Source: Escherichia coli (GTDB lineage: Bacteria > Pseudomonadota > Gammaproteobacteria > Enterobacterales > Enterobacteriaceae). From it: a DNA stretch of 64,000 bases. A program made the position numbers and the translations under genes. The notes under the pieces are model-generated. The model was not told the DNA's origin. It saw only the letters and a list, made by a program, of their open reading frames with translations, and searched no databases. Of this stretch, positions 2,739-50,162 are shown piece by piece. How positions within the stretch are numbered: position 1 is the first letter of the stretch; the number at the start of each line of letters is the position of its first letter. The stretch lies in the NCBI RefSeq assembly GCF_003334765.1, contig NZ_QOWT01000021.1; one strand, written 5' to 3'.

Positions 2739-3011
2739 GTGAATAAATCTCAATTGATCGACAAGATTGCTGCAGGGGCTGATATCTCTAAAGCTGCGGC
2801 TGGCCGTGCGTTAGATGCTATTATTGCTTCCGTAACTGAATCTCTGAAAGAAGGGGATGATGTAGCACTGGTAGGTTTTGGTACTTTTGCCGTTAAAGAG
2901 CGTGCTGCCCGTACTGGCCGCAACCCGCAGACCGGTAAAGAGATCACCATCGCTGCTGCTAAAGTACCGAGCTTCCGTGCAGGTAAAGCACTGAAAGACG
3001 CGGTAAACTAA
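2739..3011 (+). CDS. hupB: Nucleoid protein HU-beta (90 aa), GTG start
   Basis: Full-length match to HU-beta ([29 protein letters not shown]...). Confidence 0.97.
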
Positions 3012-3043
3012 GCGTTGTCCCCAGTGGGGATGTGACGAAGTTC

Positions 3044-3073
3044 AAGGGCGCATCTACTGATGTGCCTTTTTTA
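3044..3073 (+). terminator. Probable hupB terminator
   Basis: Imperfect hairpin GGGCGCATC...GATGTGCC followed by TTTTTTA. Confidence 0.5.
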
Positions 3074-3202
3074 TTTGTATTCGGTGACTTTCTGCGTCTT
3101 GTGGGCTGACAATTGCCCCCGTTTCTTGTCACAATAGGCCTTTGCGCGCATCGATACGTTGCGTGAGGTACACAGTCATCTACAGCGGAGTGTTGTTACA
3201 CC

Positions 3203-5648
<2,446 letters not shown>

Positions 5649-48491: not shown

Positions 48492-48575
48492 ACACCGTCG
48501 CTTAAAGTGACGGCATAATAATAAAAAAATGAAATTCCTCTTTGACGGGCCAATAGCGATATTGGCCATTTTTTT
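48492..48575 (+). ncRNA. chiX: ChiX (MicM/SroB) Hfq-dependent sRNA, about 84 nt
   Basis: ACACCGTCGCTTAAAGTGACGGCATAATAATAAAAAAATGAAATTCCTCTTTGACGGGCCAATAGCGATATTGGCCATTTTTTT recognised; intrinsic terminator hairpin GGCCAATAGCGATATTGGCC plus U-run. Confidence 0.93.
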
Positions 48576-49368
48576 AGCGCAACATTTGCGGCAAATTCCC
48601 TTCTCCATACAGGTGTAGTGCACCGACCGCGACCACATATCGCCCCGGCGGCATGGCGCGTAATTTATCCCGCCAGGCGAGATTTCGCTGATGCATCAGC
48701 ACATCGTACAGCGACTGACTGAACGTATTGGGCAGCGTTATATCATTATTTTGCGGCGGTGCATTCAGCCACCAGCTCATCATTTGTTGCAGCAACCGTG
48801 CGTTGGTATGCCAGTGGGTCAGCGTATCGTCCAGCAGCGCCAGTCCTTTGTCAGGGAGCTGGAGCAACATGGCAATCTGGTTTTCAGCCCCTTCCAGTTC
48901 AATCACGGGTTTATGTTGTTGCTTCGCCGCCTGCAATAGCTGGTAATCGATACCGTATTCTGCCCGCAGCCCCAGTTTTTGTGCCTGCGTCGCCTGAAGA
49001 ACCATCGCGATTTGCCACAGCGGTTGGGTAGAAAAGAGTGAGGGAGAAATGCCCATCTCCTGGCTAATGTGCTGCAGGTTTTGGAGTTGCTCCTCGCTAA
49101 TGCGCTCTTCCAGCGCCTCGCAGGCAGGCAAATTAGCAAAAGGCGTATCGCTGGTGGAAACATCCGCCTCGACGATCAGCGCATCGGCGTTTTTGAGCTT
49201 TTTGAGCAAACGGGTGGGCAGGGGAGCCATATCGTGGCTACCCATATGAATACTGCCAATCAGATGAAAATGGCGATTGCCGGGGAGGGTGATATCGATG
49301 GCAGGCCAGGTGTAATGATTACCGCGCAGCGCGGCCCAAAGCGTTTTTACCCGGTACAACAGATCCAT
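48574..49368 (-). CDS. ybaP: TraB/GumN-family protein YbaP (264 aa)
   Basis: Full-length match MDLLYRVKTLWAALRGNHYTWPAIDITL. Confidence 0.9.
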   Translation of the reverse strand: MDLLYRVKTLWAALRGNHYTWPAIDITLPGNRHFHLIGSIHMGSHDMAPLPTRLLKKLKNADALIVEADVSTSDTPFANLPACEALEERISEEQLQNLQHISQEMGISPSLFSTQPLWQIAMVLQATQAQKLGLRAEYGIDYQLLQAAKQQHKPVIELEGAENQIAMLLQLPDKGLALLDDTLTHWHTNARLLQQMMSWWLNAPPQNNDITLPNTFSQSLYDVLMHQRNLAWRDKLRAMPPGRYVVAVGALHLYGEGNLPQMLR

Positions 49369-49505
49369 ACGACCTCCCTTTGTGAAATATCATGCTAGCG
49401 CGCGGTGAGGGATGGCGCAAATGGAGTTGGAGACTTGTTTAATGTGTTTGTATGATTCAGTATGTTCTTGCATCGCTATTCACAAGGAAGCAACAGTTAA
49501 AAACC

Positions 49506-49847
49506 ATGAAACAGGCAACAAGAAAACCGACGACACCCGGAGATATTCTTCTCTATGAATATCTGGAACCGCTCGATTTGAAAATCAATGAGTTAGCAGA
49601 GTTGCTGCATGTTCATCGTAATAGCGTCAGTGCACTGATCAATAACAATCGTAAACTCACTACTGAGATGGCATTTCGTCTGGCGAAAGTTTTTGATACC
49701 ACAGTCGATTTTTGGCTAAACCTCCAGGCGGCGGTTGATCTTTGGGAAGTTGAAAACAACATGCGCACCCAGGAAGAATTGGGACGGATTGAAACAGTGG
49801 CTGAATATTTGGCACGCCGTGAAGAGCGTGCAAAAAAGGTCGCGTAA
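49506..49847 (+). CDS. ybaQ: XRE-family HTH protein, HigA-antitoxin-like (113 aa)
   Basis: Track ORF is over-extended; ATG 49506 gives MKQATRKPTTPGDILLYEYLEPLDLKINELAELLHVHRNSVSALINNNRKLT (HTH_XRE). Confidence 0.92.
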   Translation: MKQATRKPTTPGDILLYEYLEPLDLKINELAELLHVHRNSVSALINNNRKLTTEMAFRLAKVFDTTVDFWLNLQAAVDLWEVENNMRTQEELGRIETVAEYLARREERAKKVA

Positions 49848-49870
49848 GGCCAAAACATCGCTTCATCTCG

Positions 49871-50120
<250 letters not shown>

Positions 50121-50162
50121 CCAAATGCGCCACCCTAAAGCAGCGCATCCGCAATGATGTAC

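Follow-up and report, generated by a model that had tools for sequence, protein, structure and literature searches.

Toxin-less ybaQ locus

The window analyzed here, a stretch of 64,000 nucleotides (nt) from the Escherichia coli contig NZ_QOWT01000021.1 (assembly GCF_003334765.1), carries the small gene ybaQ, which codes for a HigA-family antitoxin and stands without a toxin gene at its side. The local order is ushA (+), ybaK (−), the small RNA gene sroB, ybaP (−), ybaQ (+), an array of bacterial interspersed mosaic elements (BIMEs) and copA (−). The DNA is that of E. coli K-12, with 100% identity to strain MG1655 over positions 49200–49900 (megablast), and this form of the locus is called the K-12-type allele in the following. 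The gene and the neighbours that define its position are:

49506–49847, plus strand: ybaQ coding sequence, 113 amino acids plus stop codon, ATG to TAA (open reading frame scan, TIGR02607, HTH_3, PDB 2EBY)
49815–49844, plus strand: codons of the C-terminal tail RREERAKKVA (degron tag known from the literature)
48574–49368, minus strand: ybaP, TraB/GumN family, divergent left neighbour fixing the locus
50163–52667, minus strand: copA, convergent right neighbour fixing the locus

An open reading frame (ORF) scan confirmed the coordinates of ybaQ and of the 137-nt gap (49369–49505) that separates it from the start of ybaP at 49368, both of which had been proposed in a sequence-only reading of the window. 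That reading had also described YbaQ as a HigA-type protein with an XRE helix-turn-helix (HTH), and the domain searches agree: YbaQ matches the NCBIfam model TIGR02607 ("HigA family addiction module antitoxin") with 105.3 bits (cutoff 47.7, E = 1.1e-30) over model positions 2–80 of 81, and its residues 16–70 represent a Cro/C1-type HTH (Pfam HTH_3, 1.6e-10). PDB 2EBY is the structure of a protein identical to YbaQ, and solved HigA chains match YbaQ with values from 3e-9 to 6e-6. By these sequence and domain tests, K-12 ybaQ is the gene of a HigA-family antitoxin; the RefSeq name already reads "HigA family addiction module antitoxin", and the annotation needs no change. The C-terminal tag of YbaQ has been used as a ClpXP/ClpAP degron (PMC2907309, PMC12239797), which is consistent with the proteolytic lability of antitoxins; the tail listed above is an approximation of this tag.

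The gap holds no toxin-sized ORF, as the sequence-only reading had stated. ORFs of at least 25 amino acids that touch the gap are limited to fragments of 27, 33 and 48 amino acids and an in-frame extension of ybaQ to 131 amino acids, which adds 18 codons and begins with an ATG at 49452. This extension had been dismissed as an artefact, rightly so on three grounds: a TAG breaks its reading frame in an allele of the cryptic Escherichia clades (L005), its ATG falls within the best predicted −10 hexamer of the region, and all homologues begin at MKQATRKP. We further built a hidden Markov model (HMM) from 14 HigB homologues that adjoin YbaQ homologues and ran it with filters off. Against the six frames of 49300–49520 it gave negative bit scores only, without a toxin remnant, and across the 64-kb window it gave no match better than E = 3.7. 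Similarly, tblastn of the toxin HigB-1 (described below; E up to 1e-3) found no match in the K-12 region. The degenerate toxin pseudogene that had been suspected in the gap was thus not recovered by either search, and the toxin ORF is cleanly gone.

Toxin-bearing allele at the same locus

To place the allele in the species, 49200–49900 was compared by megablast with 5426 complete E. coli genomes. The loci fall into three classes, namely K-12-like, with a gene for a RelE/ParE family toxin inserted between ybaP and ybaQ, and without ybaQ. The toxin gene, higB-1, is present in 1266/5426 genomes, always chromosomal and single-copy, and is either intact or recently inactivated. The K-12-type toxin-less junction (49425–49510) occurs in 3567/5426 genomes, once per genome, while the remainder without ybaQ comprises about 590/5426 genomes (~11%); the ybaQ region is covered to at least 80% in 4829/5426. 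As ~11% of the E. coli genomes have lost ybaQ, the gene is dispensable.

In strain PMV-1 (phylogroup B2), the order is ybaP, a RelE/ParE-family toxin of 100 amino acids, a 35-nt spacer, ybaQ and copA. This HigB-1 matches Pfam HigB-like_toxin (PF05015) over its full length (9.4e-32), and its best solved relative is PDB 6F8S chain B ("Putative Killer protein", 3.4e-14), which we take to be the GraT toxin in the GraTA complex of Pseudomonas putida. The antitoxins of K-12 and the B2 strain are 100% identical at the protein level; their genes show 4 synonymous and 0 nonsynonymous differences, none of them within the first ~160 nt.

Several parts of this picture are known from previous studies. The first solitary antitoxin reported for E. 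coli was YbaQ, in the work on RASTA-Bacteria (2007; PMC2374986). Rousset et al. described higB-1 upstream of ybaQ in phylogroups B2/F and found ybaQ to be essential where the toxin is intact; knock-down of ybaQ in strain S88 led to strong over-expression of higB-1, and the YbaQ motif derived from ChIP-exo (chromatin immunoprecipitation with exonuclease digestion) is present in the higB-1 promoter (bioRxiv 10.1101/2020.05.25.114553). The same authors concluded that K-12 lost the toxin and that phylogroup D lost both genes (bioRxiv 10.1101/2020.05.25.114553). The core story, an orphan antitoxin left over from the higB-1/ybaQ module of B2/F strains, is therefore already published, as is its practical consequence that ybaQ is essential only together with an intact higB-1. 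What appears to be new is the operator with four half-sites and its complete disappearance from toxin-less alleles, the unusually strong divergence of this stretch, the recurrent toxin pseudogenization in other genera, the homologous module of the phage-plasmid D6 and the YbaQ homologues on 176 plasmids, all of which are described below.

Taken together, K-12 ybaQ is very probably what survives, as antitoxin and autorepressor, of a HigBA module that is fixed in the chromosome, belongs to a GraTA-like subfamily and has lost its toxin. The sequence-only reading had left the choice between an orphan antitoxin kept as a regulator and the remnant of a decayed toxin–antitoxin (TA) module; both descriptions are essentially right, and decay is demonstrable with the toxin present at the very same locus in other strains. 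It had also named as a counter-argument that relatives might never carry an adjacent toxin, which they do. In this subfamily, a PF05015 HigB-like toxin is encoded upstream and a TIGR02607 HigA antitoxin downstream, and in the B2 module a single promoter within a nested palindrome drives higB-1 and then ybaQ. By analogy to the family, YbaQ would bind and neutralize HigB-1, a putative ribosome-dependent mRNA endonuclease. The K-12-type allele, found in about two thirds of E. coli, appears to have lost the whole higB-1 ORF and its ribosome-binding site. Its YbaQ is unchanged and would be expected to bind DNA through its HTH and, judging from the published degron-tag work, to be labile to ClpXP. 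With no cognate toxin, any action would have to be exerted in trans, on other chromosomal sites or on incoming homologous modules.

A comparison with known systems sharpens this assignment. The higB-1/ybaQ module of B2/F strains shares with K-12 the ybaP–copA locus, the antitoxin and the flank on the side of ybaP; K-12 differs from it in lacking higB-1, the ribosome-binding site and the four-half-site operator, and in carrying an additional BIME array. Among solved structures, the GraTA-type complexes 6F8S, 6F8H and 6FIX, all presumably of the P. putida GraTA system, are closest: besides the match of 6F8S chain B to HigB-1, their antitoxin chains match YbaQ at 3–4e-10. As in the B2 module, the toxin gene of the 6F8S-type system comes first and the HTH antitoxin gene second; it is a distant homologue and complete, in contrast to the antitoxin alone in K-12. 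Canonical HigBA systems (chains 4MCX/4MCT/6CHV, which we assume to be from Proteus vulgaris, and 2ICT/2ICP, presumably from E. coli CFT073, as well as ygjN-ygjM of K-12) likewise have an upstream gene for a RelE-fold toxin and an XRE-HTH antitoxin that represses the operon. Their sequence similarity to YbaQ is only remote; they represent different subfamilies, compared here by sequence. Orphan antitoxins from degraded modules are common in Klebsiella and other bacteria (PMC7354431). Unlike for these, the intact parent module of YbaQ survives in the same species and at the same locus, and its origin is therefore demonstrable rather than inferred.

Two further loci deserve mention. In strain HS-02 (L021), half of higB-1 is found at 88% identity and the 3' two thirds of the gene (1640–1810) consist of poly-A/poly-C runs, with an annotated 78-aa (amino acid) hypothetical protein and a 123-aa ybaQ product; we rejected it as a decay intermediate, as errors of assembly or polishing most likely produced this toxin region. 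NZ_CP137697.1 (128,814 bp, labelled as a plasmid) carries K-12 ybaQ and its upstream region with 100% identity at 33722–34141, and could represent either an F-prime-like element or a contig of the chromosome that was assigned wrongly.

Homologous modules in relatives and on phage-plasmids

Next, we looked for YbaQ homologues in one genome per bacterial species, which yielded 17 loci. Four of these (4/17) are from Escherichia, flanked by ybaP and copA, and all four are toxin-less. The remaining 13/17 lie outside the ybaP–copA context, with neither ybaP nor copA nearby, and all 13 have a HigB homologue directly upstream that is 39–79% identical to HigB-1. Their hosts are Trabulsiella, Citrobacter, Enterobacter, Kluyvera, Sodalis, Erwinia, a metagenome-assembled genome of the Caldilineaceae, E. 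albertii and Escherichia sp. E1V33. In the latter two, the antitoxin encoded on the module contig differs very little from the one on a D6-like plasmid (NZ_CP020051.1, L022), which carries a complete module at 2920–3703. This module is of the same type as that of phage D6 (MF356679, 67422–68232), where HigB and HigA are 80% and 75% identical to HigB-1 and YbaQ, respectively. Overall, close YbaQ homologues outside the ybaP–copA locus are paired with HigB in 15/15 modules, and this constant pairing characterizes the family as a mobile two-gene module. The spacer between toxin and antitoxin in this subfamily measures ~20–90 nt, with the 35 nt of E. coli B2 as an example; the expectation of a toxin gene overlapping the antitoxin gene or lying within about 10 bp of it did not hold here.

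As a side observation, the HigB homologue contains a premature stop or frameshift in 3/13 relatives, in each case next to an intact antitoxin gene: in-frame stops occur in Citrobacter portucalensis (L007) and C. koseri (L013) and a frameshift in Enterobacter sp. Bisph1 (L012). In L007 and L012, the fourth half-site of the operator described below is mutated to ATGC.

Probable loss of the operator in the K-12-type allele

In 15 modules, the sequence upstream of higB contains the strongly conserved element (a)TGCAC-TTG(c/t)-GCAC-N-GTGC-N4-GTGC, with a TAnnnT −10 hexamer behind it. Its core is a nested palindrome of 25 base pairs, GCAC-N4-GCAC-N-GTGC-N4-GTGC, which is exact in 12 loci, always at the higB promoter; the higBA module of D6 has an exact copy. 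In B2, the palindrome overlaps the promoter (−35 TTGCGC, 17 nt, −10 TACAAT). We presume that it is the operator bound by YbaQ/HigA, as this would agree with the YbaQ motif from ChIP-exo that has been reported for the higB-1 promoter, and with the over-expression of higB-1 upon ybaQ knock-down. In the window, the pattern had no match at up to 3 mismatches. The intergenic region of the K-12-type allele can be divided as follows:

49369–49429, no strand: ybaP-proximal part, common to toxin-bearing, toxin-less and ybaQ-less alleles (alignments)
49430–49497, no strand: segment specific to the K-12-type allele, ~68 nt, without a toxin coding remnant (alignments, HMM)
49431–49455, plus strand: position equivalent to the operator, AGAC-TTGT-TTAA-T-GTGT-TTGT-ATGA (alignment to the family operator)
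49428–49456, plus strand: best sigma-70-like promoter candidate for ybaQ, TGGAGA-17-TATGAT (consensus scan, 9/12 matches)

Collinearity between K-12 and B2 ends at GGAGTTG (49429) and resumes at ~49498 (TAAAAC, then the ATG). Between these ends, B2 has ~400 nt comprising operator and promoter, higB-1 and the spacer, as opposed to ~68 nt in K-12; the higB-1 gene that is absent from K-12, along with its ribosome-binding site, accounts for 303 nt. The ybaP-proximal part is 97–98% identical even in cryptic-clade loci. At 49431–49455, 8/16 half-site bases are changed and all four half-sites are altered (AGAC, TTAA, GTGT, ATGA), and this stretch is probably the decayed operator. In the 40 nt of the operator region, K-12 and B2 differ at ~19 positions, next to a synonymous divergence of 0.053 in the adjacent ybaQ, while the same segment differs by 6.5–9% among toxin-less alleles, which is about the level of the flanking genes. 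With toxin and operator both missing, the K-12 locus does not qualify as a complete HigBA module.

These changes also bear on the expression of the remaining gene. The promoter scan of the region returned 2 sites where 1.1 are expected, which lends weak support to the predicted ybaQ promoter. The nearest Shine-Dalgarno-like AGGA lies 17 nt from the ybaQ ATG in K-12, compared with AAGG at 7 nt in B2. Judging from the altered half-sites, YbaQ of K-12 probably no longer represses its own promoter.

Stages of module decay

The alleles of the locus can be arranged in four stages of decay that coexist in one species at one locus: intact module, frameshifted toxin, toxin deleted with operator erased, and both genes lost. 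It is this coexistence that makes the locus a textbook example. The first is represented by PMV-1 and by strain 201609, whose intact module has a toxin variant of 97.7% identity. In the second, exemplified by NC101 (L023, 501–802), a T7-to-T6 frameshift at nucleotide 57 disrupts higB-1, with operator and ybaQ intact; CFT073 carries a stop codon in higB-1 (bioRxiv 10.1101/2020.05.25.114553). An NC101-like length of 302 nt was also seen in ~3/30 sampled higB-1 matches. A homopolymer-mediated off-switch of the toxin may hence be common in B2 strains.

The third stage is that of K-12, with 3567 genomes in total. In the fourth, ybaQ is also gone, always on a toxin-less background. For example, in M7424 the upstream segment of the K-12 type is joined directly to the final 25 nt of ybaQ, and in EC556-type genomes (n = 347) a multicopy repeat of ~270 nt takes the place of ybaQ. 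This GC-rich element (L003, 2770–3045) is found at a median of 4 copies in every E. coli genome, K-12 included; it had no Rfam match, and no annotated feature lies under its matches. Furthermore, a 10-nt deletion in the chromosomal ybaQ of Escherichia sp. E1V33 (L009, 3001–3342), a genome of the cryptic clades, shifts the frame of the last ~20 codons.

Possible roles of the orphan antitoxin

The ratio of nonsynonymous to synonymous substitution rates (dN/dS) is ~0.1 for K-12 ybaQ compared with two of the three toxin-less alleles of the cryptic clades (L004, L005), which suggests that the toxin-less gene is under purifying selection. In most E. coli, this selection acts on an antitoxin that has neither toxin nor operator.

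One conceivable explanation, to which we assign a rather low probability, is that YbaQ was co-opted after toxin loss as a stand-alone transcription factor and rewired to unrelated chromosomal genes. Purifying selection on toxin-less alleles would fit such a role, and Rousset et al. regard the conservation of ybaQ in the absence of the toxin as suggestive of other functions (bioRxiv 10.1101/2020.05.25.114553). In addition, a YbaQ motif was reportedly sought in binding regions obtained by ChIP-exo in K-12 (PMC6237786). However, the window holds no operator-like site, ybaQ is dispensable and has been lost repeatedly, and the protein sequence is the same with and without the toxin, showing no sign of neofunctionalization.

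A role in anti-addiction appears less likely still. Here, the orphan YbaQ would be retained because it cross-represses or cross-neutralizes the HigBA of D6-like phage-plasmids and small plasmids and in this way weakens post-segregational killing. With the chromosomal operator gone, expression would be constitutive, and the change would be an adaptation that freed ybaQ from autorepression, not decay. Orphan antitoxins have been proposed as a source of anti-addiction (PMC7354431), and the higBA of D6 is considered to act by post-segregational killing (PMC6799933). The opportunity for such encounters exists: YbaQ homologues are encoded on 176 plasmids, D6-like higB gave 63 plasmid matches in complete E. 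coli genomes, and both phage D6 and the D6-like plasmids of ~90 kb carry the module with 80% (HigB) and 75% (HigA) identity and the exact operator. The putative recognition helix of the HTH, assigned by position and not from a structure, is nearly identical between YbaQ and the HigA of D6, and both antitoxins belong to the same subfamily and end in a KK-x-A tail. They differ in that the D6 module is complete and resides on a mobile replicon, whereas K-12 ybaQ is chromosomal, fixed and orphaned. The dN/dS of toxin-less ybaQ also speaks for such a role, and the operator change, far above the neutral divergence of its neighbourhood, would then be adaptive.

On the other hand, 75–80% identity is no guarantee of cross-neutralization, as TA pairs are usually insulated from each other, and the poor Shine-Dalgarno spacing in K-12 speaks against high expression. 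The losses of ybaQ in ~11% of genomes also count against a protective function, as does the case of E1V33, where ybaQ is frameshifted in a strain that itself has a D6-like module. D6-like plasmids do occur in many E. coli; ~61/63 of them reside in genomes without chromosomal higB-1, most of which presumably have the orphan ybaQ. At most 2/63 were found in higB-1-positive genomes, where ~15 would be expected under independence (raw counts, not corrected for phylogroup). This rarity of D6-like plasmids together with higB-1 may reflect host range only. The D6-type higBA of E1V33 is complete and lies on a 94.6-kb contig (L010), apart from the frameshifted chromosomal gene.

Divergence and polarity of the toxin-less allele

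Several observations weigh against a simple loss of the toxin as outlined above. A difference of ~19 in 40 nt beside a synonymous divergence of 0.053 shows that the segment did not diverge step by step under neutrality following a simple deletion of recent date. Instead, it arose either by a discrete event (a deletion plus a replacement patch) or from an old split of alleles with later homogenization of ybaQ. Alignments of the K-12-specific sequence to B2 gave mixed results. A gapless alignment to the B2 operator/promoter, anchored at the 5' end, has 21/40 identities, which 0.4% of shuffles reach (p ~0.004), and its matches include the B2 spacer TTGT, which differs in other species. In contrast, when the 74 nt specific to K-12 were aligned freely (Smith-Waterman) with the 406-nt B2 segment, the score was 8, below the shuffle mean of 8.9, and the 3'-anchored test gave p = 0.39, so that homology of this segment to B2 is weakly supported. 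An outside source of filler sequence was considered and rejected, as distant blastn matches occur once per genome and at this locus only. Finally, the toxin-less allele is also present in three divergent Escherichia genomes of the cryptic clades, which are 92–95% identical to K-12 in ybaP and copA. Given this distribution, the preference for loss over gain rests on parsimony and not on a rooted reconstruction.

The opposite polarity, in which Escherichia first had a stand-alone ybaQ, B2/F strains later gained higB-1 with its operator and promoter, and K-12 never had the toxin, nevertheless seems improbable to us. It could draw on the majority status of the toxin-less allele (3567/5426 genomes), on the cryptic-clade genomes just mentioned and on the K-12-specific 68 nt, for which free alignment to the B2 segment revealed no robust similarity. 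However, all 15/15 homologous modules elsewhere consist of toxin and antitoxin with the same operator, and a gain would need the precise insertion of a cognate toxin and operator upstream of an orphan without any foreign sequence left in ybaQ, where K-12 and B2 are identical over the first ~160 nt. Also, the 5'-anchored similarity includes the TTGT spacer, which is B2-specific and non-conserved. Independent inactivation of the toxin is recurrent (NC101, CFT073, L007, L012, L013), and the published analysis infers loss as well (bioRxiv 10.1101/2020.05.25.114553). Descent of the K-12 antitoxin from a complete module remains our preferred interpretation.

A separate observation concerns Escherichia sp. 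MOD1-EC7003 (L004), where identity to K-12 amounts to 98.0% in ybaQ but 93.3% in the flanking ybaP and copA. This pattern suggests either inter-clade recombination at the locus or an unusual constraint on synonymous sites.

BIME array and neighbouring small RNA

The sequence-only reading had further noted a BIME array after ybaQ, which a repeat search located precisely:

49869–50129, no strand: BIME/REP (repetitive extragenic palindromic) array of three units with a period of 101 nt, between the convergent genes ybaQ and copA

Rfam naRNA4, a family that we take to be modelled on the REP/BIME element, matches at 49873–49950, 49974–50051 and 50075–50116, with scores of 89.3 and 79.9 bits compared with a gathering score of 59.5. 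A megablast query that included the first REP unit found a median of 4 places per genome. The number of units differs between alleles: B2 (PMV-1) and the cryptic-clade L005 have 0, L004 has 1, L009 has at least 2 and K-12 has 3; this variation from 0 to 3 indicates that the array expanded after toxin loss. A hidden or unconventional toxin partner, whether encoded in the gap, on the other strand or further downstream in this array, is hardly credible: the gap does have its ORFs of 27–48 amino acids, and ORFs of 40–134 amino acids overlap the gene and the array on both strands, but none of these is HigB-like (HMM scores were negative), those in the gap are much smaller than a RelE-fold toxin, those in the array are translated REP repeats that are missing or present at another copy number in other alleles, and the in-frame extension has its stop in L005.

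On the far side of ybaP, between ybaK and ybaP, the known small RNA gene sroB is located at 48502–48575 (+), where Rfam RF00368 matches with 71.9 bits (gathering score 44); we take this RNA to be the one also named ChiX or MicM.

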